A stretch of 64,000 bases of DNA from Prorocentrum cordatum (GCA_963575745.1 CAUYUJ010000236.1:1-64000), one strand, 5' to 3'. Positions 11,596 to 50,224 are shown, counted from the stretch's first letter. The notes: a model not told the origin generated them from the letters alone. Program-made: numbers and translations.

Positions 11596-14500
11596 CCCAG
11601 GGGTATAGATGTGAGTGCGGTGTAACCTTGCGCGTGACCTCTTCCGAAACAGATTTGAAAAAATGATGGGACTGGTTGGACCTTCTTGTTTGGCCGATTT
11701 CGCGAATGTCGAACTCGCGGCTGCTATCGGCATTCCTGACGCGGCCTCGTCGTCCCTGGTACAATCTGGGAACGACGTCGACGTACACCGGCGGGACACC
11801 GTGTGAAACCAGTGAGTCCCAGAAACGGCGGGGTCGATCGAGTCGAAGGCGTACAGAAAAAATCGAGCGTGGCAACCCAAAATGGCGGCCTAACCCTGAG
11901 CTGGGGCCTCTGGCTCTTGGAGCCATAACCAGGATGCATAAAACTAACGGATACACAGTTGACAAATGCATGCGAATATTGAAGCAACGTCGAAAAGTTG
12001 GCAACATGCGCAAGAAAACGATGATACAACACATTAAATTGGCCCCGGGCCCGCAAAGCAGAGCCAACGGCGGCAACGCGAGGACAAGGGTCACCAGCAG
12101 CAGGACAAGTAGCAACAGAAGCAGCTGCGCAGCAGGATTATCAGTAGGACGGCGACGATGGAGAAAGGGTCAAAAAAAAGGAGGAACAGCAACATCAGCA
12201 GCATGGCCAGGCGGAGGAAGGGGGGGGGATGACGACGACGAACACAACAATAATGAGGGATACGAAAAGTCACCAGATTCGGCGGGCCACCAAGAGCAAC
12301 AGGAACAGGACGATGACCTTCTCAAAGGCCTGATCAAGCCCATGGATGTGGGCGCCTCCAGCCTCATCGCCCTCGCGTGGTCCGCGTCGAAGCTCTAGAG
12401 CCACACCGCATCCTCGCAGGACCTGCCCAAACCTCCAAAGAAAAACGGGCGGTCCCGGCTCAGCTCCCAGATCTTCGCCTCCGCGTGGCGGATCTTCCCC
12501 AGCAGTCGCTGGAGACTGCAGATCAACCCGATCGGCCTCCAAGTCCTCCTCCTCCTCCCCCCCCTCCTCCCTCGTCCGCCTTCTCCACCCTCCCTCTTCC
12601 CCCCCACTCCTCCTCCGCCTCCTCCGTCTCCTACCGCAACCCCGCTCATTTTCATTTTCGTCGTCTTCAGGGTCGGCGGCACCGGCAAAAAGGCCTTCGC
12701 AACAAGATGCGTAGTAGGTGGTGGCACGTTGGGGACGTGCGCGCGCAGGTAAAATGTTCTATCGCCGCCAGCAAAGATCGAGTTCACCAAATACCTGATC
12801 GAAGCGCGCACTGAGCATGCGACGTCGCCAAGCTTTGGTCGGTCAAGAATGGCGTTTGGGTTGCGCCCGGGGGCTAAAAGTTCACGTTCCAGCCCGCTCG
12901 GGATTGGGGGGCCCAGAATTGTTGATATGAGGGTGCGAGGGGGAGTGTTTTGACATCAGCTGCTGTTGAAGCACAGGCGTTTTGGCGGGGGGCTGCGGCA
13001 TAATGTTCAACGCCGCACAATTCTGCAATTGGTGTATGAGGTTGGGGCGTGGCGGCCATGGGGGCATAGGGCAAACTGATGCATATAGGGCGGCATTAAG
13101 CATACATGCGTGTACGATCACGCGTTGTATCACTAGTTACTAGTTATCACAATTCTGCGTTTCCAATCGGGCAGTACTGGGACATAGCATTGAACGCATC
13201 ATCTAAATGGTTCAAGAATTGAATGTAACATTGCGCGCGACGCAGCGTCCGATGCTGAAGGGCGCGCAAAAAAAAACGATGACCAAGCATTCGTGCTACT
13301 TACTGCTAAGCCCAGGGCTGACGGTAGCGCAGGACGACCAGTTGCCCAATTGTAGAATCCAGACCTAAGCTGAAGGCAACGCGATAACACAACTGCCCAA
13401 TTGTTGCGTCCAGCCCTCCTCCTCCCCGTCCTCCCTTCCCCGTCCCTCCCGTCCTCCAGAAACCCTCAGGGTTGAATTCAACAAACCATGGGCACAATGT
13501 CCGAAATCCCTCAAGTGGCCCAGCCAGGCCCTGATGCAGGCATACGGCTCCTGCTCGAACATCGCGCGTTCCAAACATGTTCGCCGAAACGCACCACCAT
13601 ACGAAATACTTGGGGGTGTCTTTAACGAAACGAACATCAGGGGGAAAAAACACGGGTCAACGATGCAATCAACTCTTCAAAATTTCGTCAACGATGAGTC
13701 AAATCTCGCAACAAAAAACAAAACACATCAGCTTGTCATTCAACGTTTTCAGAACAACCCAATAATTGTATCAAGCTTTCCGCCAACCAAAAAAGTAAGT
13801 GATTTTATACACGTTTTACCTCACGCTGGTTAAGCCGAATACCACGCCCAGGGCTATACTCGTTGCACTTCTCTGCGATAAGGGTCAACGCGAAGAAGTG
13901 GTCATCGCAAGAATAGCCTGACCAGAAACCCACTTGATCGCATGTCTGTCCTGCAATGAGCATTCCGGATATGGACCCGCAAAATACACGACTAAATAAT
14001 TCATATCATACTGGGATGATGCATATTTGTCGATTGTCCTCTGCCAGCCTCGAATCGCCCTTCTCGAACAAAACTCGCGATGAAGACGCCTTCCAGAACT
14101 CGGGGATCTCGGACCCCGGCCCCGTGACAGCGGTGAGAATATCTGCAATCAAACTGAAGAAGAAGGGATAATGATGAACCCCAAAAAGGACCCCTAATCA
14201 TCTGGGAGGGGACCTAAGTTAGGAGGGTCACTAACATTAGGGTTACTGGGTCGTTGTTGTGCTGCTGATGGGCCCAACTTAACAGCCCAGAATATTCCTA
14301 ATGCAAGGAAGGGGGTCTAAATGACGCCACGTCTTCACTATGCTATTAGGGTGAGGGGTTCTTTTATCTTCGATGAGATAAGGGTAAATCCGCACCAAAG
14401 CGGTCCCCCGACCCTCCCAAATCCATCTGGTGCAGTTTTTCACCCTGAATCCGTTTTTGTCACGGCCCCAGGGCCCGAACGCGGCCCCTGGAGGCCGAAG

Positions 14501-25500: not shown

Positions 25501-25693
25501 AGCAGGTGGGGAGGTGATGCGCGGGGACTGCGGGGAGAGAAGGAGCCTCGCCAGCCAGGCCGATTCACGGCGTGGTGGGTCGCCCCCTGCAGGAAACAAA
25601 GAGACCGCGCGACCGCCCGACACATCGCGCCTGAGCCGCGGGGGCTGGCGACCCGACGGGGGGGGGGAGGAGGAGGAGGAGGAGGGGGAGGAG

Positions 25694-25725
<32 letters not shown>

Positions 25726-26099
25726 CGACGACGAGGGGGGGGGGGGGGGGGAGAGGCGAAGGCGAGGAGGAGGAGGGGGAGGGGGGGGGGGAAAAAGAGG
25801 GAGGGGGTGGGGAGATGGAGGGGATGAGGAGGATAAGAAGGAGGGAGGGGAGGGGGATGGAGGAGGAGAAGGGGGAGGAGGAAAAGGGGGAGGGAACAAG
25901 GGAACAAGCCAGGAGGCGCCAGCTAGTCTCCCGCAGGCGCCTCGAAATGACAGGTGGCCCCGTCACCTCGCCCAAGGCGCGTCGGCGCCTAGTCCTCCGG
26001 CGCCAACCACGCGCTGAACTAGTAGACGCATGCAGCGGGGGAAGGGCGACGCGACAGGGGCAGGGGGGGCGGGGGCCAAACAAAATCACTCAACAGGGG

Positions 26100-29000
26100 G
26101 GCCCCTTTGAGCTTGGAGCCAGTCTTCGGGCGCAAACCGTCCCGAGTGTGAGCCAGAGACCCCCTCGCACTGACAGGGGGGGGGGGGGGGCCCGAGCTCG
26201 GGGGCCGGCAAATCGCTCTGAGCTTGGGCCCCAGCCTGTGGGCACAGTATGAGCCACAGGCCGTGCAGAAGATGTAGGGCCCTACCTGCTCCATCACATG
26301 GCCGAGTGCAGTGAAGCACTCAAACGGACTCTCCTCCTCCCCTTTCCCTAGGCCTGGGCACTGAGGCAAGTCCAACCTCAGGCAGAGGCGAGCCCCCATG
26401 GGGCCCCACACACGGACCCCCAGACCCCAGGAACACAGAAGCACCAGAAATCGCAGTCTGGACAGCCTCAGGCCTGGCCAGGGGGACGGCGGCAGCGCGC
26501 AGCCCGTCACTGGAAAAAAACGAGTCGAGCACGCTCTCGCACAAGATGGGAGGGGTTACACTCGCGCCCAGAACCTTGGGTAAGCCACCTTATGGAAGCC
26601 TCCGTTTTGGCTCTGGCCAGACAGGAACGACAAACAACGAATTCACCAGATTTCCAGAAATCATGCCCCTGGAATCGAAGAAGTGGCAGGGCGAGGTGTC
26701 GCGCCACAGCAACGTCAGCCTCACGAAGGGCCTGCATCCCCCCCCCCCCCCCTCCACACACCACCTCCTCGCGCGCGGCGTGCCGGGCAGCTGCCCAGCC
26801 AAAACAACCTAGCATTGTTCCGATCAGTCGCCAACTGGCCAGCCCAATACCCGACAAAAGAGTCAGCGACCTTAGGAGACCTGGCTCCTACCTTGGCGAA
26901 GAAATCCGCCCACATGTTACCAAACCACCAGGACACAGGCCACTGATCACGCTCGAGGAACTCATCCAACGCGAGGTGGGCGGGCACCCAAGCGAAAGAG
27001 GGCATCCTGGGATTAGAACGGCCATGGGCAGCGCTAAATGTTTTCCTCCAGATGTCAGCGCGGGCCGCCGAGGCAGAGGCATGCTCCTCCGACCATTCGA
27101 CCCCCTCACGCACCGCCCCCAGGAGATCCGAGACAGAGAGCACTAAACGCGGCAGCAACTGAACCCCCCCCAGAAGCGCATATCGTTCAGATCGGCCGAC
27201 AGTTTGGATGGGTCCAGGCAGAGGGCCATACGCCGCCCTAGCTGGGAAACCAAAGTCTCCCATCTGCACCGGGGACCACCCACAGCGTCGAAATTCAAGC
27301 CAAGAGCTGAGCATGCCTGACCCGTCAAAAAACGCCATTGGACCCCAGCTCTCAGGCTTCGACCCCCAGTCCCCCCAGAAGAAGGCGGGAGGCTCGGAGG
27401 ACGGAGAGGGGGGCACGGGGGGGGCCTGGGGGAGCCCAATGCAACATTTAAGCAAATGAAAAACTATCCTGCCCCAGGGAATTGACTCCTTCCTCAGACA
27501 GACGATCACGTGTTTGTTCCAACTCATCAGTCCAGGCTGGCAGGCCGCCAGCATCATTCTGTTCGACCACATTCGGGCACGCACACCGAAGATGACCAAG
27601 ATCTCCAACGGCCCCTCGCTGGCGGCAGTCAGGATGCGGGCAATGCGGCGTCCTCAACCATCCACGTTGGCGCCTTTTCTGCACAGACATGAATCCACCA
27701 GCCCATGAGCACCGCAGGGCACCCGCGACTTGGGCATTTTGAATGGTAGCCGCCTTGCCTCCCACCGTTAGGTTGACTGCCCGCATCCACACCGTCCCAT
27801 TACCTTCAAGATGCTCCGCATGGTGCTCAAGGACCCATCGTCCTTGCCAACGCTGCACGCCGAGCCGTAGTAGCTTTCTAACATCCTTGGGATGCATTCT
27901 CAACAGCGAGCTGACCATACCAGTGTCGCTGACGATGGAGGTGCTTTTGGCCAGGTCCCACACCACACGTCGTAGAGATAGCCACGTGGCCGCGATGGGA
28001 CCTCGAACACCCTGCCATCCTGGATCCCGTCCAAACCAACGAGACTGCAACACGCGCCAGGACCGCTCAAGCCTGCCCATATCCAACCGCACGTCGAACA
28101 CGAAGCAAGCGTACATGTACACCATGTTGAGCGTCGCGCCAAACATGAGATCCATGAACTTGTCCCTCTGCGTGGCCAGATAAGCCGTGACACTGACTCC
28201 CTTAGCATGGACACCAGCTATCACCCCCGCCGTCTGCCGTAACTGCTTCAAACCGCAACCAGGCACTCCTGATACCGAGCTTCCATGTGCGGCCCCAGCA
28301 AGCAAACCAGACCTCCAAATGGCCCCCACTTTGGAGCCTGCACTCGCTTGGACCACCTTGATGCGACCCATCCTCTTCTGTAGTTTACCCAAGCGACCCT
28401 TGGCCACCGTGCGGATCAACTTGCCTCCGGCCATGTCATGCCCAAGATTGCGCATCTGCTTCCTTCGCGCGAGCCTCAACATCTTAGCCCATGGAAGAAA
28501 TCTCTTGATAACTGCACGAGTTGTGCCCACGTAGCCTGCCTTCACAGGTTGAACAAGTAATCCCAGACTTCGCATGCCACTCTTAAAGATCCTGGTGGCC
28601 TTGATCAGCTCGGTCATTCCATCAAGGTCCTGGCCAACCCATTGCAAGGTGAAATCATCAACCAAAGCCCGAGGGTGCACGGTAGGACAAATCTCCTGTA
28701 CACTGATCAGCGTGCGAATCATGAGCACTGCGAGCAGAGTAGTCGCAGATGTGCAGCCAGGAAGAATGCCTTGCTCCACCTCGCGCATGTAAGAGGTCGG
28801 GCCAAAAGCATTCACCGCCCTCGGCATCTTGTATGAGGTAACCAGCTGCCACAGCAAGCGCAACGGGAATCCAACTTCACGCGCTTCACGAAATAGACTG
28901 GATACCTTCACCGTGCCAAAACACTTCCACCTATCCATCATAACCTTCAGCCACTGCCGCGAAAGGGGACGCCGTACTCTGGCCCACACTCGCACAGTGT

Positions 29001-31350
29001 GGATCAGCGCCACCAGTCGAGCACCTCCACCATCCTTTGGAATTCGAGCCATCTCTGAATGGATGCGTCCCACTGGCCATGCAAGTAGGCGCCCGCGCTC
29101 CATAAAGAACGAAGCCATCGCGTCCAACCCTTGCATTGACAGGAAGCACAGCGATCTAGGCTGCATCCTCGAAGGTCTTCCACTTGAACGTCAAGATGGC
29201 CTCTAGCCTCTAGCATCATGTCCGTGGCGATATACGGTAACACTTCCCATGCACCACAATCAGACGGCAAAGAGATGTCACTATCATCGTGAACTGACCA
29301 CACTTTCATCCACTTGCTCATCTCACGATCAGCTAGCTCGTGAGGGGACTGCTCAGAACCAGCATCGATGATCTCCTGTGTCGCCTGCAACCGAGTGAAT
29401 CGATGCGCTTCACTTGCTCCCCTCTCAAACGCAGAGTCGACGAACCTTTTTCCGACGTGGGCGATCGACCGTCTGATGAGCATCAAGCAACCTAGCATGC
29501 TCCTTCTCGATATGGGCGTAGACCTGTTCAAACTCCGCACATGCAAGAATCGAGAACACTGGGGTGGCCATGAAGAACTCCGACACCCATGCAGGAAGCA
29601 ACCTGAGCGTGCGTTCAAACGCACGAACGCCATGCATAAACCTCATGTCTTCCACCAGCACTTTAGCCAACGCAGAACAATCAGCCCGGCCGTGAACGAT
29701 CCTGTTCCCATTCTGCAAGATCAATTTGTGTCCAACCAGCTTCGCGACATGCTCCTTGGCCCTCCGACGCTGAACAATCCAGCGAAGAGCCGCCATCCAG
29801 GCACGTAGCTCAGGTCCATGTTGCAACCTTGCCAATGGAGGTCGCCATCTGGACTGAACCACCTGGGTGGCCAGAGGGCACCCGCGTCCCGACGCCGATG
29901 CAGCCTTTGGCCCATCCACGCAGTCAGAGACGCCCTGCAACTCAAATTCAATGCCAGCCAATAACGCATCCCAAGCCAGACTCAGGTCATCCTCGGACTG
30001 GGCATAGAACACCTGTCTCTCCACGTCCCCCCAGTCATAAGGAAACCTCTCGCATCCGATCGGCGGCGCCTTGGGAAAGGGGATAGGACCCACGACCCGA
30101 CGTACCCAAGCAGGCCTGTCCTCCGCTAGTATGGGAGACACCACAGGTAGATGCACCTTCGTGTTGCTGTCGTCCACGACGTAGGGCCTGCGAATACGAG
30201 TTCCCAAATTGGCGCACACAATGGCGTAGTCACACACGCTGCCAGGCTGTACCAGAAGGCAAGTGGGCCTCGATGGCGCCGCTACGAAGCCCCGAACGCC
30301 CTCCAGCCAACCAGAAGAAAGCACACCTGGAGTGAGATTCCATTCGCCCATAACAATCCAGTCACGTCCCAAGGCATTCAACATCGAAAGAAACCGAGCC
30401 GTCTTGACGAAGAGTGCCTCGCTGGCCGCACTCATACCTTCTCCTGAAATAAAATAAACGGCAACGATAACAACTCCACCTGGCACAATCCAAGAGACAC
30501 CAGCTGCAGCGATGCGACCTGGCTCAATTACATGATCAGGCAGTGCGGGCGGGGCCTTGGCCACTAGATGAGCGGGAGCCAAGATTGCCACCCCGCCTGA
30601 CTTGCCGTCCGCCCCTGTCTGCACTGCACCTCCACAGAACCCATGATACCCAGGGTAGCGCACGCGCGCCTGCAGAGCAGGTAGATGCTGCGTTAACGTG
30701 CGATGCTCCTGCACCACGCAAACCTGGGACCTGCACGTCTCCATAAATATCTTGAATGGTCCAGACCCCTCCACATTTACAGAAGTGATGTTGCCCTTCA
30801 ACTTGAGGTCATACTTGGGCCGTTCCTCGCACTCCATCTGTGCGCTGGCGGCGCGATGGGCAACGTTGCTGTTCATCCCGCCCTGCTCATAAAGAATAAC
30901 GCCAGACGCATCAGCCGCCTCAACATCTGAAACAACACTGCTTTCAGTCGATCCTCGAGCCACACCAGGAACTCGTTCGTCGACAATAATATTACGAACA
31001 GGGGGCCCAACTGTACCCCTGCCGCGTCTTGGCACTTTTTTGTTCTCAGTAGCTGCGTTCAGCTCATGGTTTGGAAGAGAATAAGCGGCCCCTGAGCCGC
31101 CAATGCCAGCATCGCCCACAGCAACACCAGTCGAAGCCACCGACCTCGTGGTAGCAGTAGCCAAACGCGTGCCGTAGCCCGCCTGGATGCCAAAGAACTC
31201 GTCCTGATCGAACCCAATGTCGTCGACGCAGTCAAAGCCATGTGCAATCCTTGCAGCACTATCATCGACGCCAGTGCGCCCATCATACGCAGGGCGCCGC
31301 GCAGCACCATCGGGCTGCGGATGAAAAAGTGGAACCCCATTCCTCGGCAT
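26100..31350 (-). pseudogene. LINE-A1 ORF2 (pol), frameshifted
   Basis: APE: ITSVNV, VVQEHR, SGGVAI, VAVY, MGEWN, CDYAIV, HLPV (30.8-30.1 kb); RT: QGILPGC, LVDDF (28.8-28.6 kb); RNase H: FFDGSG, QTVGRSE, SD, WVPAH, GNMWADFFAK (27.35-26.9 kb); GH-x-CxxC fingers GHDFWKSGEFVVCRSC and GHVMEQVGPYIFCTAC; split over track ORFs 29425..32631, 29004..29633, 27448..29166, 26721..27608, 26507..26857, 26019..26510. Confidence 0.88.
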
Positions 31351-31351
31351 C

Positions 31352-32555
31352 TCAATAGGGTGCATGCGCGACTGCGAGTCGCTGTCGACCTTGATTGAAC
31401 AGAGGCATCTGAACCACACGACCAGCAGCAACCCTACGGCCTTCCAAGTCATTGGGTATGTGCTCAGCGAGGTCCGCGGGGTACAACGCCTCGAGAGACG
31501 CCCTGAGCTCCTCCTCCTCGGCATCGGCAATGATGTCGGCCAGCGGCTTGGGCGACTCAGCGGGCGGAAGGTCCTCCACGCCGAGCTCTCCTGCAACGCC
31601 GCCCCCGTCAGCGGCAGCGCCCGAGCCTGCGTCAGCAGCCATCTCTTGCGCGGGGGGCGCTCGACCGCGCCGACAGCCCGCTCCTCTTCCAGGGAGACCT
31701 TCCCCACCAATATCTGGCCCATGCTGGCCGACAAAGCCTGCGCCAGGCCACCGGCTTGCTCGGCTGCAAGCCCCAGCGCCTCGAGCATCTTGCCCAAGGC
31801 GCCCACGTCGACACGCATGCCCTTGCCCTTCTCCTGCAACGCGGCCTCCTCTGGAGCAAGCGGGGCCCGCTTCGTGAGTTCCTGCACCTGCGCACTGAGG
31901 GCAACCACTTCCTTCTCCTGCTCCTCGAGGTCCTGCTGGGTCAGCACCAGGCTCTCTTGGACGTCCTTATGCTGCTGCTGTCTTGCCGCCACGAATTCGC
32001 GAGAAGCATCGGCCCTTTTCTCCGCCGACATGAGCCGACTCGACATCGTCTGCAGCTTGGCACACATGGGACGCGACTCATGCAACTTGGCATGCAGCCG
32101 CTCCTTCTCCTCCCGCAAAGTTCCCACATGCGCACTCGCCTTCGAATCCCAGCTGTACTTGGACACGAACGCCAGCTGCTCCTCAATCTCCTCGAGCCTT
32201 TTGCGCATGTCCGCCCCGTCGTCCTTTCCGTCATCGACCAGCATGGCGCCCCCAGTCTGTGGAGCGCTCCTTCCGACCCCTGCCTGCAACACTCGGATCC
32301 GCGCTTCCAGCTCCCGAATCTTGCTTTGCCCAGCGGCGTCAGCCTGCTGAGCCTGGATCCCCCAAGGGGCCTCAGGTGGCTTGGCACGGAATGAAGGCTC
32401 CAGCGGCTGAACATTCCCGCCGAACGTGACTCCTTTCGCCAGGCCGCACAGCACGCACTTCTTCGCGTGCGCCATGTTCCACCACTGCTTGCCCGTACGT
32501 TCGTTTGTGCAACTCTTGCAGAACCACTTGCTCGCATTCTGCTCCCGAGGCCCCA
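31352..32555 (-). pseudogene. LINE-A1 ORF1 (gag-like), RanBP2-like zinc finger plus coiled coil; one apparent frameshift near 31650
   Basis: WFCKSC...WWN...KCVLCG followed by heptad-rich E/Q/L/R stretch; continues in track ORF 31352..31642 ending ...HAPY*. Confidence 0.7.
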
Positions 32556-32717
32556 TCGATGCGTCGTCTTGAGAGAGAATCTGCTCACCTGCGGGGCCGC
32601 AGGAGGCAGCTGAACAGCTGGTGTGGACCAACTGTCAGAAAGTGAAAAGGTTGAAAGCTGCCGCGGACTAGCGGTATCCAGTCTTGCCAAGCTGGCTTAG
32701 CCCGCCAACTCATCAGT

Positions 32718-32739
32718 CTTGAGCCAAAATGGCTACGGA
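32718..32739 (-). other. Perfect 22-nt dinoflagellate spliced-leader (DinoSL) sequence
   Basis: Plus strand CTTGAGCCAAAATGGCTACGGA = reverse complement of TCCGTAGCCATTTTGGCTCAAG, matching consensus DCCGTAGCCATTTTGGCTCAAG; not followed by a GT/GC SL-RNA donor, so a retroposed relic rather than an SL RNA gene. Confidence 0.97.
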
Positions 32740-32881
32740 GGAGGAAAAGGGGGAAGAGGAGGAGGAGGAGGAAGAGGAGGAGGATATGGGGGAGGAGGAT
32801 GGGAGGAGGAGAGGAGGACGGGTCGCCGAAGCCCTTCGGAGAAACCTTCCACCCAGAGCAAACTGGACCACGCCTGGCCAG

Positions 32882-32913
<32 letters not shown>

Positions 32914-34089
32914 GAACACGGACCCGACCAGACGACGACGCGAGAACGGGCCAGACCAAACAAAATTGATCCAGAACAGAAACGACTGGCCCGGCCAGGC
33001 CAAAGGAAACCGCACCGGGCCAGACGACCCACGCCGCTGCACGGCTAGAATTGTAGGGGCATAGATCGGAAGAGGAAAATGAATGAAAAATGAAAATAAA
33101 GGAGGACGAAGAGGGGGAAGGCAAAACGCCCAAACGTTCAATTGATGCTCCAAATAACAAAATGAGCTGAGAGCCCCGCTCACGGGAGCTATGGAGATAG
33201 TGCCCCAAGCAAACATTAAATTATCGGAAGCACTCGTGAACGCGTTGCCAAACAACGTCGGACCACATTCAACACCCCTCATTCACGCACCCACTCTCGC
33301 AATTTCGGCCGAACAATAAATGACAGCGACGAACGCACCCCCGAGAGCCAAGAGGTTGACTCTGGGTCCACGTATACATCCGCTCAGCTGGGCCTCCCAG
33401 AAGCCCACGAAACGGGTGACAGTTGCGCAGGTAGCGAATCCCCATAATTAGAGCCACGGGATCGACGCTGGACGTGCGTAAGACGCCACCCCGCTGGGAC
33501 CTCGGTGGGCCCACGAAGGTGCAAGTGGCAGCACCTCCAGAGAGCCGCGAGGTCGACACTGGACGCGCAAATGCCGACAACTGCGAATGTGGAGGCACCC
33601 CCATGGGGGCTCCAGACCTCGTTTGGGCGCGCTGAAGACGCCACTCCTCTGGGTCCCCGGAGCACACGAAAGTGGCACCAGTACGGCGAGGTCACGTCTG
33701 CGTGTGAAGGCACCGCTCCGCCGCGCCCGCGGCCGTGCGCCGCCCACGACGCGTTGCCGGCGCTCTGGGCGGCGGACTCCAGCAGCGCGAAGTGGACTGC
33801 GCTGCCGCGCAATCTGGCGCTGCAGGCCCCTCTCCCGGGGCACGCGATTGAAGGAGCCCTGGGACACACAAGTAAATCCGCCGGCCCCCTTGTGGGGCCA
33901 CCAGGCTGTAGGCCTAAGGTTCGCAATTTCCTGTACCACTTGCAGCTTCCAATTTCCGCTTCCTGTTCCTTGTTGACTTTTGGCTGCTTACTGTTCCTTG
34001 TTGATGGACCGCGCAAGGGGGGGAAGCCCAAAACACGCATTTTCACCGAGGAGAAATCGTATTGTCTGAATTGCTTGGGTGGATGAAAA

Positions 34090-39649: not shown

Positions 39650-39749
39650 NNNNNNNNNNNNNNNNNNNNNNNNNNNNNNNNNNNNNNNNNNNNNNNNNNN
39701 NNNNNNNNNNNNNNNNNNNNNNNNNNNNNNNNNNNNNNNNNNNNNNNNN
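39650..39749. other. Assembly gap (100 N) inside a (CCT)n tract
   Basis: N run. Confidence 1.
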
Positions 39750-39878: not shown

Positions 39879-42410
39879 AAACGGCATAGTGGTGATGTCT
39901 GCATGTTTAGTGGTCGACGCTGGCGTTAAGGGGGGGGAACATCTGTATCCTCGATGCCGTGGCGAAGTACCTGCACCAGCTCAACACCTTGAATGGGCAT
40001 TGGATCATCGGATGGGGGCTGGCACACCGATTGCGAAGACCTGGACGCGTGGTTCCATGCCGTCAATGGGACCAGGATCGCCGCCGACCTGCCGACGTGC
40101 ATCCAGGCCATGCCAGGTACCAGCAGGGATTTCTTCTACGTGTCGGAGAGCATGGTGCCGATGCTCTTGGAGGTCGACGACCATGCGAGTACCGACCTGT
40201 TCCCGCACCGTCCTGTCGAACTGGGAAGTGCCACCCAGCCTAGGAGCATGTGCTGCAGAGTTCCAGTCGAGCCTCGTGCACTTCCTGACACGCCCAAGAT
40301 CGGGCGTGGGCGCTTCCCTCCAGTTGCGGAATGGCACATGATCAACAACATGTGTGTGAACGCCCAGTCCCCTGATGACCTCGCGGTGTGCTGGGACCCT
40401 GTTCTCACAAGCCTTGAAGCCGAAGTTATGGATCGCCATGATACTTTGGAGAGTTCGGCGCGAAAGGTTGATCTTGGAAGGGCTGGTTCACCTCAGTACG
40501 CTTGGAAGGAAGCCAAGGCGGCGAAGCCAAACAAACCGTCTGAACTCAAAGCCTGGAAGACCTTGGCGAGATGGCTTCGGTACCTGAGATCGGCTCGAGT
40601 CAAGTTGCTGTCGCAAGTGGCCAGCCTCCACGACGGCGGTTTCGAGCTCAACCTCATGTCCATGTCCGAGCAGATGCATGTCCTGCACGGCTTCGCGCGC
40701 AGAGTGGCCAAGACCCAGTGGGTGCTCGAGCGCGTGACGCCTGAGGCCAAGGCTTTCATGTCTGACGTGCCGTGTAGCATCGTCGACCCCAACTTCGACC
40801 AAGTTGTACAATCCTTGATCGACTTCGCTGGGGCAAAGATTCAGGAGTGGCTAACAGTCTCAAGTGACGAGTGGTCGGACTGGGCGGAGAAGTCTTCCAA
40901 GTGCGGGGCAGGAGCTGCCCATAGGTTATCCAGGCTAAAGGAGATACAGGAACTCGCAGCTGCTGACACCAGGCCTCAGCCTTTCCAGCGCGCAGATGAT
41001 TGCATTGGTGAATGGGGCAAGATCTGGAGCATGCACGAGTGCACCGCAGCCCCGCTGCCCCAAGGTGCTGACACGTGGGACAACTTACCGATAATTACTG
41101 CCGCCGGCATGTGTCTTGCTGCTGCGTCGTTCCCGACGCGCGCGGCGTTGGGACATCTGGCGTTCAGCCCGAAGGCGCTGTGCCAGGTGCCCGACAAAGG
41201 CCTGGAGGTCCTCGCGTCTCTCTTCATGGCATGTGAGAGGTTGAGATCATGGCCTACAGAGCGCATTCACGCACGCTTGATTCGGCTAGGCAAGCCAACA
41301 GGCGGACACCGCCTCACTGCTCTGCTCAATTCGCTGCTGCGTTTGCGGGGCAAGATTAGGAAGCCAGTCTCGCAAGAGTTGGAACGTCCCCACCGACACC
41401 CATCGTTCTGGGGCCACGGTCCCAGAGCCAGCTCTACGGACGCGGCATTCGATCATAATGTGGAGGCGGAGGTGGCTACGGCGGCGGGGGAGTACTCTGT
41501 GAGCGTGTTTCTTAATGTATAAATGCTATGAATGCATTATAGTCCCTCGGCTTTTAACCGAGGCGTGCGAGCTAGCGTATCCCTTGAGAATGATGTGGAT
41601 GTTCCTCTCCCTGTATCGGTGTCCTCGTCTCGTGCAGGCGTTCGGGTCTGTGTCGCGTTGTGTGGTTACGCGTCAAGGGATACTAGCTGGCTGCAGCCAC
41701 GCAAACACGATGATGCATCTGCTCCTTCACCGCGTGAGCTGCAAGATGCGCAGAATCTATTTCACTATGCAGCCGCGAATCCTCATGGATGACTCTAGCT
41801 TCCAGTGGGCTGGCAGGCGGCTGTGCGAGTGCAATGTGCTGCTGGCCGCGGTGCGGTGGCATTGCCATCAAGTTTTCATTCGGCCTGATCCTGCAGGTTC
41901 TCAAGAGTGGGTTTGTAGCTACCGCAGCTAAAGCGTCGTCCAGAGTGTCGTCGTCGGCGCGGAGCTACACCCACATGCGCAATCTGGGCCATGAAGTCTT
42001 CTCTGGAAGACCTCAAAGGGCCCAGGAGAGTGCTCGGCTCAGGAAAGTATTTCGCCGCCGTCCCAAGCTTGCTGCGCTGCGTCGCGGAGCTCCAGGGAAG
42101 GCACAGATGCTCTGGAGGACTGGCTTGATGCCAGCAGCAGGCCACGGCGCAGGAGTCAGCGGATTCACAGACCCTTCCTTGAAGGCGCTGCGCACTTTGG
42201 CTGGCTCTCTAGTAGGTGCCAGACGCCCTGGGTCTCTCACAGCTTGGCTGGCCACGCAGGTAGATCCGTTCTATGACCCCAATTTTGATGCGACGGACAG
42301 CGATACGCCGGCATGATATGGGACGCCAGATTTTCGTTCGGGCGTCTGCAGAGAGCGTGGATGCAGATACGTGACCAGATTTTCAACAGGCCCACCTGGA
42401 ATTCGTGTCG
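39879..42410 (+). mobile_element. LINE-A2 5' part: 5'-truncated relative of LINE-A1 (APE C-half, RT)
   Basis: GIVVMSAC, WIIG, DFFYVS, PHRPV, GAGAAHRLSRL, GKPTGGHRL, NVYKCYE, QGILAGC, LMDDS, MRNLGH, WRTGLMPAAGHGAGVSG, all collinear with LINE-A1 motifs. Confidence 0.87.
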
Positions 42411-42929
42411 GATGTTTGATAAAACTGATGGATCTCCCCGTTTCCAGAACTGGCGCGGGCTTCCACTTCCGGTTCCCTTGCTCCTGCCCTTGCCTCCTTG
42501 CTTGCCCTCTCCCGCTTCTTCCCTACTCTCCGCCGCCTGGCGGCTCAAGCCTTTTCAAAGGCCAAGCTGGGGGTCGGCCTCAGTTGGCCTAAGGCCGGGC
42601 CCCGGGACCGGGGCCAGAAGACTTTCGGGATCCGGGACCGGGCCCGAAAGGGGGAGCGCCCGCGGCCGCAAGGCGCCGCGCCTGGCGCCGCGCGGCTGGG
42701 GGGAGGGCCCGGGCACCGAGCGGCGCCGGCTCACGCCAGCCGCGGAGCACTCGATGGCGAGGAGGCGGCTGCCGTGGCGTGGCCGCCGCCGGCCACCGCC
42801 GAGCGGGCGGCCAGGCGCGTGCCAGCGCCGGCGCCAGCTCGACGCCAGGCGAGGGCGGCAGAGCGCGCGTGCGCGCCAGGGCCCGCCTGGAGGAGCTGCC
42901 CCGGGGCCCTGGCGCCGCCGCCCTCAGGC

Positions 42930-45460
42930 GGACGTCGCGGCCGCGCCGCAGCCCTGCTCATGATCCTCGTGATGGCGATGGAGACCGCAGACGCCGGGCC
43001 CAGGCTCTGGCGGACGGCTCCAGACTACGAGGCCGAGTACACGTACCCGTCGTACTACTACGACGACGCGCTGGACGTGGACATGAAGCCAGTTTGGCTC
43101 GACGGCACCGTGGTCCCCTTCCTGCGCAGGGACACGCTGCCGATCGGGGCGTGCCCCGAGGGCGAGCACGACGCTCCCGCGGGAGGTGCCGGGAGGGGTC
43201 CGCCGCGCGAGCGCTCCGCGCCGCCGGCCGATCCCCCTCCCCGGGACCCGACCCATGCCCCCCCCCCAACTCCTCCGACTCGAACTCTTCGTCCTGGATC
43301 GGGGGTTGGGGTCTTTTCGGCGTCAGTTGGAAAGACATCGGCGACCGCGCGCATTGGTTCGCCGAGGGGATGGGCGGGGGCACCTTCAGGGTTTTCGGCA
43401 GCTTCAGGTCCGCCTTTTCGACCCGTGAGGCAGGAGGCTGGCTGGGCTCGGACGGCGGCTGGGTGCTCTACATGGCCGACCAGATGGGCCTCTACCTGTT
43501 CGGCTCCGCGTGGCCGCTGGTCGCCGGGCTCGTGGCGATCCTCGCCAGCACCGGCGTGGTCGCACTCTTGGCCCACAGCCTGAGAACGCTCTTCGCTCCC
43601 TGCAGCTGGGCGGCATGGGCGGGCGGCCTGGTGTTGGCATGCTGCCCTTGCCCGCGACGCAAGGCGCCTGGCGAGGCCAAGCTTGACAAGCTGGTCCCGC
43701 CGGCGGCCCCGCCCCTCACCGACGTGGCATGGCATGGTCCAGCCGTGGGTGCAGATCCGACCACAGATTGGTGCCGCAAGAGCGTCAAGGAGGGCAGGGG
43801 CTCCAAGCGTGGCCAGAACGACCTCCTGATCAGGGTCGACTATCGGGTCGCGCGGCTCAATCTCAACATGAAGTCCCCGGAGCGCATCAACCGCCAAAGC
43901 CTGTGGGTCGAGTACGACTCCGTGAAGGGCGCGAGCGACAAGGGCTTCCGACGCGAGCTCGAGCAGCGCGACCCGCGCTGGCTCCACCTGTGCCGCTCAG
44001 CCAGCTGCACTGGGTGACGAGCTGCATTGTAAGGAGTACGCAGCCATCGACAACGAAGCCATCGTCGACCTCGGAGACTACTCGAAGTTCTCGCCGTGCC
44101 GGATCTTTGTCTGGCTCTGGCGGTGGCTGGGCCTGACCTACAAGCTGCTGCTGTACGTCATCTCGTGGATTTCGTGCTGCGGGGCGTGCCTCTGCCGCTG
44201 GCGACGCCGCCGTGCGACGCGGAGCCTGGTGTGCAGGGGTCCGTGGCGAGGCTGCTTGACCAGGAGTCCGAGTCCGAGGTGGACGTTGAGGATAACCCCT
44301 GCGAGGCGGTGAAAGTGGGGCTCATGATCCAAGGCAAGATGCGCCCACTAGCGCCTGAAGGCTGTCGCGACGCCGCGCGCGGTGAGCCGACCGTGCTGTT
44401 GGTGGAGGACGGCCGAGCTTCGGACCTCAAGCCTCCGAGTGAAGGGAATGCAACGGCCTGCCTATGCGAACATCACAAGCAGATCTACAAGGTCTTACGC
44501 TATAGCGAGAAGTGCTCCCAGGTGACGTGCTTCCGCGAGGCGGTGGGCATGGCCTCAGGGGTTCCACTCTGCCTGCAGCACCTCGGTGGCGACGCCGCCA
44601 AGGCGATCAACGACGCCCCCACAGGTGGCGGGTTCTTCGCGGGGTTGCGGCGTCGAACCCGGAGGAGCCCAGCTCCGCGGAGCCGCGCGCCGGAGCGTGC
44701 CATTGCCGCTCCAGCCCGGAGCCGCGCCCCAGAGCGCTCCACCCCGGCTGTCTCTGCCACGGAGGCGCCCACCAGCCCAGGCGATCCTGTTCCCGCACCT
44801 GCGGGGCCACCGAGCGTGCGGTTCGAGGCGCCGCCGGTCCCGGAGTTCCCCAAGCCGCCTACGCCGCCGCCCATGCCGCTCGGGCAGCATTTCGTCGTTC
44901 GGGCGAGGGTGCAGTGGCCGGAAGGGGCGCAGTGGATGATCTTCCGGGGAAAGGCAGCCAACGCCACCGCAGCCAGCGCGGTCGCCGAGTACCTTGACGG
45001 CGCGATGGCCCTCGAGGTGGAGGATCCGACAGGCACCATCATCCGCTTCCTGGTGAAGCCTGACGGCGTCATCCGTGCGCCTGCCCCGGGGCCCTCAGGG
45101 CGCCTGCCCGCAGGGTTCATCGAGGAGATGCTCCACCACGCGCCCCCGGGCTGTGAGGAGCTCGGCATCAGCGTCTCGGCGACTAACGTACCTGAGAAGG
45201 TCTGGCACAAGTTGGCTGCGTGGCACGGGCTCCCCGTGGGCGGCCGCGCTGGGCCGCTCAGCGAGGCCCGCTGGCAGCTGCTCCGCGAGTGGGCGGCCAG
45301 CTTAGTCCGGTGGCACCCTGAGGGGGGCGTGGCACCCAGCCCGAGCTTCGAGGCGAGAGCCGCTGGGGCCGACGCCAAGTTGCGCCGCCACTGGCAACGG
45401 CTAGACCGCAGCAGCTCGCCCAAGCCGCTCCCCGTCAGCCGAGGGCGGGCGCGCAGCTAG
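42930..45460 (+). pseudogene. Polyprotein N-part: signal-like peptide, hydrophobic membrane segments, Cys/His-rich domain
   Basis: AAALLMILVMAMETADA; WPLVAGLVAILASTGVVALLA; WAAWAGGLVLACC; LHLCR..C...LHCKEYA; IFVWLWRWLGLTYKLLLYVISWISCC (frame absent from track, ~44105-44185); CLCEHH, CSQVTC, CLQH; frameshifts near 43265, 44010 and 44230. Confidence 0.6.
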
Positions 45461-45512
45461 CTCCGAAGCACCTGCCTCGGGGGAGAGCCAGCAGGAGGAC
45501 GACGGCGGGGAC

Positions 45513-48500
45513 ATGATGGCATGCTACCTGGAAGAGAAGGCCCGAAGGTCGGGCGACGCAGCAGCGGTGCAGAGCGTGGCCGCCGGCTTCGGCGAAGAGG
45601 CTCATCAGGTGCTCACCAACCTCATTCGTTACGCCCAGCACCTCAGGCAGCAGACAACCGAGCCCGAGGAGCTCGCACGGCTCGACGGGCACATCGGCAG
45701 CTGGGAGGAACTGCAGCAGGTACCTTCGCGGCCCCAGACCCCGGAGGCGGCGCCGAGCAGCCTGCAGGGTCTGCTCAAGCTCCCGCCCGAGCGCCACCGC
45801 TCGCAAGGGCCGCCGGCCACCCAGGCCGAGAGCGCGCCCTCGATAGAGATGAGGCCGCCCCGCCAGCCGGCAGCGCCCACACCCGCGCTCACACTCGGGC
45901 TGCGGGACGCCGGCCCCCTGTCGACCACGGCTGGGCTCGCCCCGGTCGCTCGCCCGCAAGCTCCAAACATTGGTGCTGTATTCCGCTACGACCATCACGT
46001 CAGCAACTTGGGATTACCCCCAGGTCTGACAGCAACCCCGGCACGCTACGCCGCGGGAGCCCCAGAGGAAGGCGGAGGAGGTGGCCCGTTCGGCCCCATG
46101 CAGCCCGGAGCGCCCTTGGATGCGAATACTGCGCGGATGCTGCATGCCCTGGAGGGCGTCGCCAGCGCACGCCAAGGCGACAAGGCGGCCCAGCGCGGGA
46201 CGGTGGCGGCGTTGGGAAGGGCGGAGGAGTTGGACGTCTACCTGGCGCGCGGGCGCGGCCAGCTGACGGTGGAGATCTGCGACGAGGTCCTTGGGCGCGA
46301 GCTGTTCTATGCTCTGCGCCGGACCTGCGATCAGAACAAGGCCCTGATGCTGGCGGTCGAGGCGCCCACGACGGTGTCCAACAGGATCGCGATGGCCTGC
46401 GCCTCGCTCAGCTTCGGCGGCAGCAGCCTGGACAACCTGGCCCCGTGGTCGGCCTCAGCGGCGGACTTCCCGACATGCAAGACGGTCGCGTTCGACAAGT
46501 ACAGCGCGCATGACACCAAGCTGGGGCCCAGGCCCAGGGCGCCGGTGGTCTTTGACCAGCGCAAGCGACAGGCCCAGAACATGACCAAGTTCTTCGGACT
46601 CGTCTTCGGACGGGAGCACGTCAAGGAGCGTCTGGACTGCCTGGAGACCCTCGCGCGGGAGTGCGAAAAGGACGACCGCGCCTTCCCGCCCAAGTTCGTC
46701 TATGAGCTCGGGGAGGAGCTGTGGTCCACCTGGTGTGAACGCCTCCGGGAGAAGAAGCGAAGCCTGCTGCGGGTGCTGCAGACGGACAACCCACGGAAGG
46801 AGGACCTCAAGATGGTGGCCTTCGCCCCCAAGGCAGATGGTCGTCCGGCGTTCGTCTTCCCCAATGTCTTCGACCTGGAGTCCCCCACGGGCAACTGCCA
46901 GGAGGTCGTGCGCCCTCGCCAGCAGCGCTACCTTCAGACCGTCCTCAACGACTCGATGCACGGGGCGCGCCGCGCCCCGGGCAAAGCAGGAGAGGTCGGA
47001 GGGGGGGCTGACGAACAGGGCGTTGAGCTGCAAGATCAGCGAGCAGGAGCAGCGCCCAAGAGAAAGCCCAAGGCCAAGGCTCAGCCGAAGGCCACCGCAG
47101 CGCGCGATGCCTACCCTGCGGGCAAGCGGCTGAACGCACAGGAGATCAAGCCCTCCGTCCGGCATGCACCTTGCGACAAGCAGGGCAAGCCGCTCTGCCG
47201 GGACAACTCGACCTGGATCGGCTGCAAGAAGGGCACTCAAGGGTGCTCGCATTCACGCGAGCTCATCAAGGGCCTGAAGGACGTGCACTGGACCGCGCAG
47301 TACCAGCTGCTCAGGCGGGGCGGGCTCCGCAACGCCGCCAAGATCGACCCAGCTTCGGCCAACGGGCGGATCGTGCAGCTGCGGGCCCAAGCCAAGACTG
47401 AAGCGGACAGCAAGCGGGCGGCAGGCGCGGGGGCAACGGAGAACCAGTCGACCAGGACGGGCTGGGCCCCACCCGACGAGTACGCCGAGGTTCAGTGCAC
47501 CGAGCTGGAGTCCGAGCTCCGCGAGGCTGCCCAAGGACCCGACGCCACCTGGCTGGAGGACCCGCGCGCTGACAGCCCCGCCCTGACAGGGACGGGCGTC
47601 TGCACGGACGAAGGGGCCCTGGTCCAGCAGAAGCTGCTCGCGGCCGTCCAGGAGAGCGGAGCGCTCGACCCCGTGAGCCACGCCAGTGACTACCTCAGGT
47701 CACACGTCTTGGCCCGCCTCGCCTGCGCTCGCGGGCGCGAAGAAGAGCTCTCGGTCGAGCAGGTACTCCTTGAAGCAACGCGCCACGGGGGCCCCACTTT
47801 GGCTGTTGAAGCCAGCGAGCTCCTGGACCGCATCGGGGCGAAAGCCGGCAACCTGGGGGCCGACCCAGACGTTATCATCACCCCAGTGCGGTGGAACGCT
47901 GAGAAGTCGGTGGGCCAAGGCTCCGTCACCGTGCAGGGCCAGACCTGGCATTACCTTGACTACCAGGACCAGCTGCCCCTCGACGGGTGCATCGCGAAGC
48001 GCCTGCGCGTGCCCGCCGGAGTTTCGGAAGAACGCCAATGTCTCCCGCTCCACCTGGCGGCAGCCAAGCTCTGGGTGCAGCTTGAGGCACCACCCGACGC
48101 CCAGCAGGTCAAGGACCTGGCCCTCGAGATCCGCAGGGACCTCCTGGAGAAGGCGACCGACGCTGCTGCCGGCCTCGCTGACGCTCCACCCTGGATATCT
48201 CCCAGGGAGGCCGAGGTCCGGATGCACATTCACGACGCGGTGCGCCGCGACCACGACAAGGATTTCAGGTGTGTGGCTCTCTTCCCATGCGAGGCGTTGG
48301 ACGAAGTGGTGCTCAGAGTCTGGCGGGCGGATCACTGGGGTCATCTGGATATTGACACGGCCCTTCCAGCGGGGGAACCCAAGCAGGAGTGCCACGTGAT
48401 CATCCACCGCGGGCACATGCGCGTCCTCCACCCCCCGTCCGGCGCCGAAGGCCGACGGGAGGCCGACGAGCTGATCCGCACCTGGGCCACCAGCGGGAAG

Positions 48501-48690
48501 GACCTCAAGGAGCTTCCCACCATGGGCTGGGAGACATACCTCGCTTCCGAGGAAGAGGGCAGCCCGGCGGTGTCCAGCAAGCCTCAGCCGTGCCAGCATT
48601 GCAGGGCACTTGCAGCACAGCAGCGGCAGCGTGGGAGAGCCGCCGGCGGTTCGCCCGCCGTGGTCGAGCTCCCCACCGGGCCTGCCCAGA
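45513..48690 (+). CDS. Polyprotein middle part (~1050 aa): gag-like helical region, CCCH-like finger, possible cysteine-protease-like domain
   Basis: Long open non-repetitive frame; CRDNSTWIGCKKGTQGCSHS; RQCLPLH ... HVIIHRGHM. Confidence 0.65.
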
Positions 48691-49920
48691 CCTTAAGGAC
48701 CTGGCACCGTTGCGCTCCCGACCCGCCTTCGCCTGGGGGCTCAGGACGCGGGAGATCTTCGCAGGCGCAGGGCGCTGGACGCAGGCCATGAAGAACGCTG
48801 GCATCACCACCAGCGAGTCCGTCGAGTACTACGGGCAGCCGCTGCTCAGCAAGGACCCCAGGCCGCAGTTCGACATCCGCGACCCGCTAGTGCGCGAGCG
48901 CCTGTACCAAGAGCTCAGTGCGCCTCCAGGCCCAGACGAAGCCAATGTGCTACAGTTCGCTCCTCCCTGCGTGAGTCACTGCCCCTGGCAGTTGGCAGCG
49001 GGAAGGACGAGGACCTTCGAGTGCCCAGACGGAACTGGCGAAGGTCAGGTTGAGATCGACGGCAATGTGTTCGGGGAGTTCGCGTGCACAGGGGCGAAGC
49101 GGCGCTACGAGGCAGGACGAGAATTCCTCATCGAGTCCTCGGCGCGGGACGGCAGGTACCCCAAGCTCTGGGATCGACCCTGTATGAGAGCTCTGGTGCA
49201 CGCGACTGGGGCACGGGCCCTCGCCATAGACACGTGCGAGTGGGGGCTCGCACCCCCGGACGAGCCCCAGTGCCGGAATCAGAAGCGAACCTGGTGGCTG
49301 GTATCACTCGGGCTCGACCCCTACGCTCTGATCTTGGCCAGGCGGTGCTCGGGCAAGCACGCGCACCGCACGCTGGAGGGCGGTCTGCCGTACGACCTGA
49401 CGGGTGCCCAGGTGGAAGCCTACAACCTCGACACACGCACGCGGCTCAGCAAGGCCGGGGCGAGCGAGCTGATCAACCTCAGCACCAAGTTGGGCGAGGC
49501 CAGCGGGCGCCACGGCCTCGACGAGGACGGCGTCACGGTCAGGCTGCCCCCGGACGACAAGCTGCTCCGCGTGAACCAGCTCATCGCCCGGGCCGCCCCA
49601 GACAACTTCCACTGGGCGCGGGTGGACTTCCGCACCAAGCGGCACTACCCCGCTCTGCCCGAAAACCAGTGGGCCCTCTACTTCGGAAGGACCCACGAGG
49701 GCGAGCTCCGCTTCATCATCAGCAAGCAAGCTCCGCCCAACCTGGAGGGTGGAGGGCGCGTCCCCAGCGGCCCCCCCCAGCTCAGCGCTGCAGTGAAGGG
49801 GGGGCTGGGAAGCGCCGGCTTCGGGCTGGGGCTGCGGGGCGTGCGGAGGACCCAGCACGCGGGGCAGTACGCGCCGCGGCTGTGCGCTGCCTGGGCAGCC
49901 GCGCTGAAAGCAGCGGCTGC
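48690..49920 (+). CDS. C5 cytosine DNA methyltransferase domain with internal insert
   Basis: Motif I EIFAGAG (~48752), FDI, motif IV FAPPC with catalytic Cys (~48959-48970), motif VI FLIES (~49125), motif VIII QKRT (~49280), CxxxHxH, terminal RTxxAxxYxPxLC (~49850-49885), all in one frame of ORF 48389..50956. Confidence 0.8.
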
Positions 49921-50224
49921 AGGCGCCGCTCCCGAGAAGCTGGAACAGCAGATTGCGGCGATGGACGCCGAGGCGCGGGCTTTGGAGGATAAGTTGGAAA
50001 GCAAGATGGCGCGGGCCGGGCATTTTGACGCCCTGGAACAAGACTCCCCTCCTTCATCAAGCCCGTCGGCCTGTGCGGCAGAGGGCGCCGTGACCGAGGG
50101 CGGGACCGTCGGCGAGCATGGCGAGAAGTGCGGCAGCTTGGAGCGGAGCGCCATCGCTGGTAAAGCGGAGGAGGATCAGTACGAGTGCAGCTGCAGCCAC
50201 GACGACAGCTGGCTTGAGGCCCCC

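Follow-up and report, generated by a model that had tools for sequence, protein, structure and literature searches.

A full-length long interspersed nuclear element of Prorocentrum cordatum that begins with the spliced leader, most probably as a copy of its own trans-spliced mRNA

The minus strand of a 64,000-nucleotide stretch of Prorocentrum cordatum DNA (GCA_963575745.1 CAUYUJ010000236.1:1-64000; "the window" below is this whole stretch) carries a 6.85-kb long interspersed nuclear element (LINE) that is preceded, base to base, by the dinoflagellate spliced leader (SL). The leader, TCCGTAGCCATTTTGGCTCAAG, lies at 32739-32718 between the element and a 15-bp target-site duplication (TSD), and it is the same 22-mer as the published dinoflagellate SL, DCCGTAGCCATTTTGGCTCAAG (PMC7245778, PMC5585692). 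The 21-nt core of the SL has one match in the window at up to three mismatches, while none of 100 shuffles had any, and no other 15-nt relic of the leader closer than three mismatches is present in the 64 kb. An initial annotation of this DNA had described a full-length LINE that starts exactly with the SL, about 160 nt before its first open reading frame (ORF), and that is bounded by a duplication of 15 bp, or 18 bp if the TCC of the leader is counted. This observation is confirmed in every detail: the 22-nt match is perfect and single in the window, the first ATG of the long ORF at 32556 gives a leader region of 161 nt, exact copies of the duplication followed by TCC stand at both ends, and the element that runs from the SL to the 3' end is flanked by them on both sides.

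Read along the minus strand, the locus consists of a (TCC)n-like tract, TCCCCCTTTTCCTCC, TCCGTAGCCATTTTGGCTCAAG and ACTGATGAG, followed after about 6.8 kb by GGCTTGTTCCCTTGTTCCC, a second TCCCCCTTTTCCTCC, TCC and another (TCC)n-like tract (Table 1). The 15-mer (plus strand GGAGGAAAAGGGGGA) occurs exactly at two sites only in the window, 32754-32740 and 25891-25877, and with one mismatch at five further sites; a near-copy with one mismatch adjoins the 3' TSD copy. It is the exact placement at both ends of the element that identifies the 15-mer as a TSD. Since TCC follows both copies, the duplication measures 15-18 bp, with a 3-nt overlap (TCC) where the SL meets the target. The predicted empty target site would read ...CCTCTTCCCCCTTTTCCTCCTCCCCCTTCTCC.... 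At its 3' end the element has two copies of the 8-mer CTTGTTCC (25908-25893) and no poly(A). The bases directly after the SL, the start of ACTGATGAG on the minus strand, are ACTG and not the GTAC with which the intron of SL RNA genes begins. Tracts of the (GGA)n/(TCC)n type, 40-230 nt long, are frequent in the window, with about 50 segments on either strand.

Table 1. Features of the SL-first LINE and its flanks, in coordinates of the window
Feature	Position	Strand	Remarks
5' TSD copy, TCCCCCTTTTCCTCC	32740..32754	-	one of two exact copies in the window; adjoins SL base 1
DNA-encoded dinoflagellate SL, 22/22 nt, first base T	32718..32739	-	5' end of the element
3' TSD copy, TCCCCCTTTTCCTCC	25877..25891	-	directly after the last bases of the element
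(TCC)n-rich tract 3' of the element	25654..25876	-	together with 32755-32818, the interrupted target tract
(TCC)n-like tract directly upstream of the 5' TSD	32755-32818	-	
5' untranslated region, 161 nt	32557..32717	-	
Long ORF, 1043 amino acids from ATG	29428..32556	-	CxxC...CxxC, coiled-coil-like region, predicted APE-type endonuclease
APE-type endonuclease	about 29728-30822	-	predicted; Exo_endo_phos match sub-threshold; relatives align
Endonuclease-reverse transcriptase linker	29205..29477	-	homologues match in the +1 frame only
Reverse transcriptase ORF	27451..29190	-	RVT_1 region about 28528-28965
RNase H-like C-terminal domain	26724..27380	-	+1 frame relative to the reverse transcriptase
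3' untranslated region	25892..26723	-	ends in two CTTGTTCC copies; without poly(A)

The 5' untranslated region (UTR) contains an upstream ORF of 42 codons (ATG at 32713-32711, stop at 32587-32585), and its folding is more stable than that of shuffled sequences (z = -2.65, with 1 of 200 shuffles as stable), so the leader may be under constraint. The domain order, parts of which are recognised weakly or through relatives, is predicted to be an N-terminus with CxxC motifs and a coiled coil, an APE endonuclease, a reverse transcriptase (RT) and an RNase H-like domain. The N-terminal 560 amino acids (aa) of the long ORF have no Pfam match. For the endonuclease, the copy itself matches Exo_endo_phos at E = 0.011 with 16 bits against a cut-off of 24.5, and the relatives that align over 30822-29728 include one, P0023, that stands above the Pfam cut-off at 24.8 bits; PDB sequences give for this region weak matches to EEP-fold CdtB chains only (E about 0.3). 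The RVT_1 match of the copy (E = 0.0078) is likewise below the Pfam cut-off. Its RT has 1156 relatives at E <= 0.001 among 1.84 billion representatives, the best long ones being about 40% identical, and these relatives are labelled by their sources as proteins of a dinoflagellate. RVT_1 is matched in 9 of 18 aligned members of the family, and a profile built from their alignment finds 8gh6, the structure of the R2 RT (E = 1.7e-6); the RT ORF as a sequence query found no usable match in the PDB.

The RNase H-like domain has five residues (D19, E65, D85, H135 and D159) that are invariant in four sequences, and its relatives are about 40% identical. It gave no Pfam match and no usable PDB sequence match, the profile of the four sequences included. 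A structural model of the domain has predicted local distance difference test (pLDDT) values of 68-96 in its core and 62.8 on average, and the Foldseek matches listed for it are all chains of RNase H or of RTs that bear an RNase H (HIV-1 RT), though weak, with a best E of 0.015. Comparison of the element with itself returns the self-match only, with no long internal or terminal repeat, and the element is therefore considered to lack long terminal repeats (LTRs). An RT of non-LTR type, a TSD, the lack of LTRs and a short tandem 3' repeat are thus the non-LTR features found. Rfam searched over 25700-33100 at E <= 1 yields two irrelevant weak matches and no ribozyme family. A hammerhead core suggested by CTGATGAG just after the SL was rejected, Rfam giving no such match at that threshold.

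Judged against its homologues, the copy is full-length but, as assembled, not intact, since the frame in which relatives match changes three times along the element, from 0 to +1 (29477-29205), back to 0 (29166-27370) and again to +1 (27380-26802). The first change falls near 29477-29728, frame 0 resumes where 7 bp are duplicated in tandem (GCTAGAG twice, 29199-29214), and the third change lies near 27372 beside runs of C.

The best explanation for these features, and one that is very probably correct, is that the element is a full-length, now defective non-LTR copy made by target-primed reverse transcription of its own mature, SL trans-spliced mRNA. A source copy would have been transcribed, and the 22-nt capped SL would have been spliced to an AG acceptor just 5' of ACTGATGAG. 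The endonuclease of the element would then have made its nick in a (GGA)n.(TCC)n tract, on the purine strand, and the RT would have copied the RNA from its non-polyadenylated 3' end, with the two CTTGTTCC units, to its 5' end or to within 3 nt of it. A copy of a trans-spliced mRNA is proposed because the SL exon is present alone, without the intron of SL RNA, and because the flanks are (TCC)n. As in SL-tagged retrocopies, the SL stands directly 5' of the retroposed transcript, between the TSD and the 5' UTR, and copying of a trans-spliced mRNA is the explanation published for the SL relics that precede retrogenes (PMC3229502, PMC12014239). By analogy with those retrogenes, the 5' SL of the LINE would be a mark of ordinary dinoflagellate mRNA processing that was carried into DNA. 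That the element's own RNA had been capped with the SL and copied to its 5' end, or within 3 nt of it, was proposed in the initial annotation, and the exon-only SL that lies flush with the TSD supports this. An SL RNA gene as the source of the motif was ruled out, with ACTG rather than GTAC after the SL and a single SL in the window; published SL RNA gene sequence continues with GTAC (PMC12584245), as do six SL-gene sites scanned here.

The same ends bear on whether the SL and the LINE came together in some other way. SL-associated LINEs exist in other trans-splicing organisms, and the element could be a site-specific LINE that had inserted into an SL RNA gene in the style of NeSL, SLACS or CRE, or the SL and the LINE could have been joined in error during assembly, the window having a gap of 100 N, but at 39650-39749, 6.9 kb away. 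Both are highly improbable, as the TSD lies outside the SL and is of (TCC)n-type sequence, no SL intron follows either the SL or the 3' TSD, the predicted endonuclease is APE-like rather than restriction-like, and matching 15-mers at both ends would not be expected of a misjoin. The distinction from NeSL, SLACS and CRE that had been drawn earlier holds on these grounds, given a TSD outside the SL, a microsatellite as target and endonuclease homology of the EEP type.

Further LINEs that begin with the SL were met in a scan of a prokaryote genome collection for the exact SL 21-mer, which gave 20 loci, amounting to 21 sites on 18 contigs of bacterial metagenome-assembled genomes (MAGs), and 20 of the 21 sites were read. 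The contigs (L004-L023) are taken to be eukaryotic contamination of these representative MAGs, probably from dinoflagellates, and SL-tagged ORFs are among their contents. The sites read comprise six SL genes (GTAC after the SL), two LINE 5' ends (L029 and L020), one SL with two truncated relics (L015), which is the only relic array among the 20, three contigs that begin with a microsatellite abutting the SL (L004, L007 and L019; unclassified) and eight remaining sites, also unclassified. ORFs of L004 and L019 had no usable match in look-ups of a protein atlas. An SL that abuts a microsatellite is seen in four contigs (L004, L007, L017 and L019), and simple repeats may be preferred targets of SL-tagged retrocopies. 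At L012:4001-4021 there is a lone 21-nt SL in a 209-kb MAG contig with the same 19-nt sequence, TTTTGCTTGCAGGCGTGAG, on both sides, and it looks like the insertion of a bare leader with a duplication.

The L029 contig (9096 nt; 71% G+C over its first 4137 nt) reads (AGAGAGAC/AG)n, CCGTAGCCATTTTGGCTCAAG, a 93-nt UTR, ORF1, ORF2, ...GGGTAAAAAA and (GA)n. Its ORF1 has a RanBP zinc finger (E = 1.4e-7), and its uninterrupted ORF2 of 2536 aa has Exo_endo_phos (5e-9), RVT_1 (5.4e-11) and RNase_H (1.3e-5), all above the Pfam cut-off, so that L029 is apparently an intact full-length LINE of 8.9 kb inside an (AG)n microsatellite. It is distant from the window element, with 31% identity over 130 aa between its endonuclease (36.7 bits) and the corresponding region of the window copy (E = 8e-4) and 30% to the family member P0105. 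L020 reads as a non-repeat flank, A plus SL, 96 nt, an ORF1 of 266 aa and ORF2; the latter has a weak endonuclease-RT Pfam match (E = 6e-4) below the cut-off and endonuclease motifs recognised by eye, and it found no usable match in the PDB by sequence. The truncated 15-nt relic follows the SL in none of the three LINE 5' ends (window, L029 and L020). The three elements are independent cases because their G+C contents (60, 71 and 43%, respectively) and ORF plans differ. These contigs indicate that SL-first LINEs exist in other dinoflagellates, with at least two further ones that are unrelated to the window element.

The recurrence of this arrangement also bears on the possibility that RT, on reaching the 5' end of a LINE RNA without a cap, switched template to SL RNA. 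U6/L1 chimeras arise by such template switching, and SL RNA belongs to the abundant small nuclear RNAs. A switch onto SL RNA would, however, copy the 3' intron part first and so leave intron sequence between exon and LINE, whereas the 22-nt exon is found alone, joined exactly at its 3' end, and three unrelated LINEs agree in having exon and UTR joined at precisely this point. A chimera of this kind is scarcely credible as the origin of the SL.

Copies of the window family were sought in a DNA run that was kept as contigs (X1), the comparison being masked at 25800-25894 and 32742-32950. Of 292 contigs that aligned to the element, 26 did so at >=99% identity, 40 at 95-99%, 110 at 90-95% and 116 below 90%, which points to a family that is multi-copy in X1 at many levels of divergence. 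The 5' UTR is the part of the element most deeply covered, with a mean depth of 107 at 32492-32730 (5' UTR and ORF start) and 239 at 32690 compared with about 4-45 in bins of the body, which is the reverse of the 5' depletion usual for LINEs. Coverage almost vanishes over the final 240 nt at the 3' end (depth 0.73), 95 of these positions being masked. The high depth of the 5' UTR may reflect a conserved UTR common to subfamilies, non-autonomous derivatives or assembly effects. A depth of 15.1 in the last bin was considered as a sign of contigs that cross the SL and rejected, since 31-nt contigs of another organism (X3) are found there too. A diverged variant of the 5' UTR in X1 has a 30-letter consensus that stops two letters into the SL position; these letters, CT on the plus strand and hence AG on the element strand, agree with the SL and prove nothing.

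Searches of other collections added no copy of the family. A degenerate pattern of the 5' UTR in metagenomes gave, among the matches listed, three, all of them chance matches in bacterial-looking coding sequence, and the viral collection had no match for the RT protein or for the SL-junction pattern. A protein word search with the RT at near lengths gave no match, nor did the peptide read through the 5' UTR as a word query at longer or near lengths. Short peptides that are 75-87% identical to the RT (P0013, P0014, P0019 and P0071) come from a transcriptome set labelled as green alga; this suggests transcripts of a close relative of the LINE, the set being probably cross-contaminated by a dinoflagellate.

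Several points weigh against the origin of the copy from a trans-spliced mRNA. The evidence is DNA, and the 5' junction of the window family is read in one copy only, the masking of 32742-32950 having placed it outside the X1 comparison. The copy's own endonuclease and RT matches are below the Pfam cut-offs, and its three frame changes may have been inherited, acquired later or introduced as assembly errors. The flanks are of low complexity, which raises chance similarity above what shuffles suggest and makes the length of the TSD ambiguous within 15-18 bp. L029 and L020 were found by a search for the SL, so they show the existence of such LINEs and not their frequency.

If LINE copies are born with an SL, it is possible that they renew it. 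According to this proposal, SL-first copies without an internal promoter are transcribed from upstream, and the AG that ends the DNA-encoded SL receives a new SL by splicing, which gives the same 5' end in each generation. A cycle of this kind is conceivable, though short of probable. A LINE lineage has to be carried on by retrotransposed copies of full length, and in the window, L029 and L020 these start with the SL. The truncated relic, CCATTTTGGCTCAAG, is the trace of splicing at the internal AG, where an SL joined after the relic's internal AG would read SL + CCATTTTGG..., and it is absent from all three LINE 5' ends, the relic array of L015 being 1 of 20 sites. The diverged 5' UTR variant of X1 seems to start at the same base after AG, as far as two letters can tell, and the depth of the 5' UTR in X1 (239 at 32690 versus about 4-45 in the body bins) and the folding of the leader beyond shuffles (z = -2.65) are in keeping with renewal. 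The SL has two AG acceptors, as reported for retrogenes (PMC3229502), and that relic AGs favour renewed SL addition is published for retrogenes in the same paper, where it is attributed to Slamovits and Keeling.

Other considerations argue against such a cycle. It is drawn from DNA sequence, and the window copy is itself defective. The relics in published retrogene transcripts are cut at the internal AG, which would add 15 nt per generation (PMC3229502), and about 87% of published retrogenes carry a single relict (7,452 of 8,564 in one species; PMC5585692). Because most retrogenes are single-relict, a single SL in three cases out of three has little power to discriminate. The pattern would look no different if the copies came from a long-lived master with its own native acceptor. 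The flanks 5' of the SL differ, being (TCC)n in the window, (AG)n in L029 and non-repeat in L020, and thus offer no common acceptor context. The initial annotation had correctly placed a pyrimidine (TCC)n tract upstream of the SL and had suggested that the relic, which ends in AG just downstream of it, could act as the next trans-splice acceptor; a role of the tract as polypyrimidine signal is weakened by the (AG)n of L029 and the non-repeat flank of L020. Given these differing flanks, and since the window abounds in tracts of the (TCC)n type, the (TCC)n is best read as the insertion target.

Alternatively, the DNA-encoded SL could act as a portable core promoter through its TTT(T/G) motif rather than as a splice acceptor, in the way proposed for SL-relict retrogenes (PMC5585692). 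The Gene Ontology (GO) term 'RNA-dependent DNA replication' is reported in that study as enriched among SL-relict genes, so RT genes with upstream relicts are already in those sets. In the viral collection, AT-rich contigs contain 127 DNA-encoded SLs, with the first ATG at a median distance of 47 nt downstream, an arrangement that would fit an SL at or near the transcript start. A start downstream of the motif would, on the other hand, lose the SL from the RNA, and the SL|ACTGATGAG joint would need renewed trans-splicing at the same AG. A promoter in place of an acceptor is accordingly an unlikely account of the LINE 5' end. A broader generalization, in which dinoflagellate LINEs as a group have their 5' end set by SL trans-splicing rather than by an internal promoter or a ribozyme, all their full-length copies are born with an SL whose terminal AG is the next acceptor, read-through transcripts restore an identical RNA in each generation, and the same machinery makes the retrogenes, is tentative and rather doubtful.

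The 127 distinct full DNA-encoded SLs of the viral collection are spread over loci L036-L154 (viral_contigs, mostly contigs filed as giant-virus MAGs, 15-30% G+C). In 97% of them an A stands before CCGTAG, a conserved AT-rich stretch in two recurrent versions lies upstream, and the ORF of the first ATG, at the median distance given above, is >=100 aa long in 96 of the 127. Among 23 such ORFs scanned, seven encode DUF4116 repeat proteins, two CCCH zinc fingers and one an ABC ATPase. The SLs suggest either leader mimicry by giant viruses of a dinoflagellate host or an AT-rich, SL-using protist that was binned as virus. LINE homology is absent from the 1.13 Mb of SL-bearing loci of this collection (0 tblastn matches). 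Four contigs of the collection (L082, L084, L102 and L119), with 48-59% G+C, carry an SL that lies near one end or follows a run of G; three are 3.8-5.3 kb long and L119 is represented by 565 nt only. SL-bearing sequences that resemble RNA viruses are mentioned in PMC10235124, and these contigs may be of that kind.

Other parts of the window hold further traces of retroelements. A second LINE of the same broad group, diverged (27-38% aa identity), 5'-truncated and without an SL, lies on the plus strand at 40047-42411; its start follows (CCT)n tracts and is about 300 nt past the 100-N gap. Another LINE is represented on the minus strand by a short piece of RT sequence (12341-12541) that adjoins a (TCC)n tract. 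Open frames of 1128 and 866 aa with 68-69% G+C occupy 45405-50953 on the plus strand and have no Pfam match and no similarity to the window LINE family.

To a specialist the presence of an SL on a LINE copy is unsurprising because essentially all nuclear mRNAs of dinoflagellates are reported to receive the SL. SL relics on retrogenes, the two AGs of the SL as a feature that favours renewal and GO enrichment among relict genes are already in print, and LINE and other RT genes with upstream relicts have probably been counted, unrecognised, in the sets of PMC5585692; the RT genes among the 'retrogenes' of earlier surveys may simply be LINEs. In the literature searched, passages of PMC5890265 and PMC5585692 included, nothing was met to say that LINEs of dinoflagellates have the SL at their start. 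The enzyme behind dinoflagellate retroposition is stated to be unknown in the relevant passages of the literature, which favour LTR elements (PMC6050394, PMC5585692). The window copy, read as above, shows that target-primed reverse transcription of the LINE type is able to turn a processed mRNA into a full-length copy tagged with the SL, which is a product of the retrogene type, and if the generalization to dinoflagellate LINEs as a group were true, the LINE machinery would be the long-sought agent of the very numerous SL-tagged retrogenes. Host trans-splicing would also be a possible new answer to how LINEs maintain their 5' ends. The base-precise anatomy is useful, since exact SLs that lie flush with duplications provide base-precise 5' ends for LINE annotation in dinoflagellate genomes, and the idea of a trans-splicing-dependent 5' end adds a new and testable variation to what is known of LINE biology.

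Among known systems, NeSL-1, SLACS, CRE and CZAR insert at a fixed site in SL RNA genes and have a restriction-like endonuclease that is C-terminal to the RT. The window element resembles them as a LINE that adjoins SL sequence in a trans-splicing organism. It differs in that it was inserted into a microsatellite, has the SL as a part of itself between the TSDs, and lacks an SL intron; moreover, its RT is followed by an RNase H-like domain, and its endonuclease homology is of the EEP type and N-terminal to the RT. HDV-like ribozymes set the 5' ends of R2 and other LINEs, and here the element differs as well, the Rfam search described above having found no ribozyme family at its 5' end or elsewhere in 25700-33100. 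L1Tc and ingi have the internal promoter Pr77 and unspliced transcripts (PMC1874656, PMC8190864). They share with the proposed cycle a way to a defined 5' end without an external promoter, but the trypanosomatid element avoids trans-splicing whereas the 5' end of the window element is the trans-spliced leader itself.

The LINEs of Symbiodinium have Exo_endo_phos, RVT_1 and RNase_H domains, TSDs, conserved UTRs and no poly(A), as described in the main text of de Mendoza et al. 2018 (PMC5890265). The order Exo_endo_phos - RVT_1 - RNase_H is found above the cut-off in L029 and is recognised weakly or through relatives in the window copy, and the window element likewise has a TSD and no poly(A) tail. 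One subtype of the Symbiodinium LINEs, Dnmt, has a DNA methyltransferase in ORF1, which the window element is without: for this domain no Pfam family was found at E <= 0.01 in the 1043-aa ORF, the N-terminal 352 aa of which gave weak coiled-coil matches at E <= 5. The RT of the window element is only about 40% identical to named dinoflagellate proteins. The term 'spliced leader' occurs 0 times in the main text of PMC5890265. A parallel for the 5' end is provided by SL-relict retrogenes (Song et al. 2017, PMC5585692; Slamovits and Keeling 2008 as cited in PMC3229502), in which a DNA-encoded SL at the 5' end denotes a retroposed trans-spliced mRNA and the AG dinucleotides of the relic can accept a new SL. 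The window element differs from these retrogenes in that the retroposed RNA came from the retrotransposon itself, the TSD and both ends being visible, and in that its SL is complete and single, without a truncated relic, and is carried by an element with its own endonuclease and RT.

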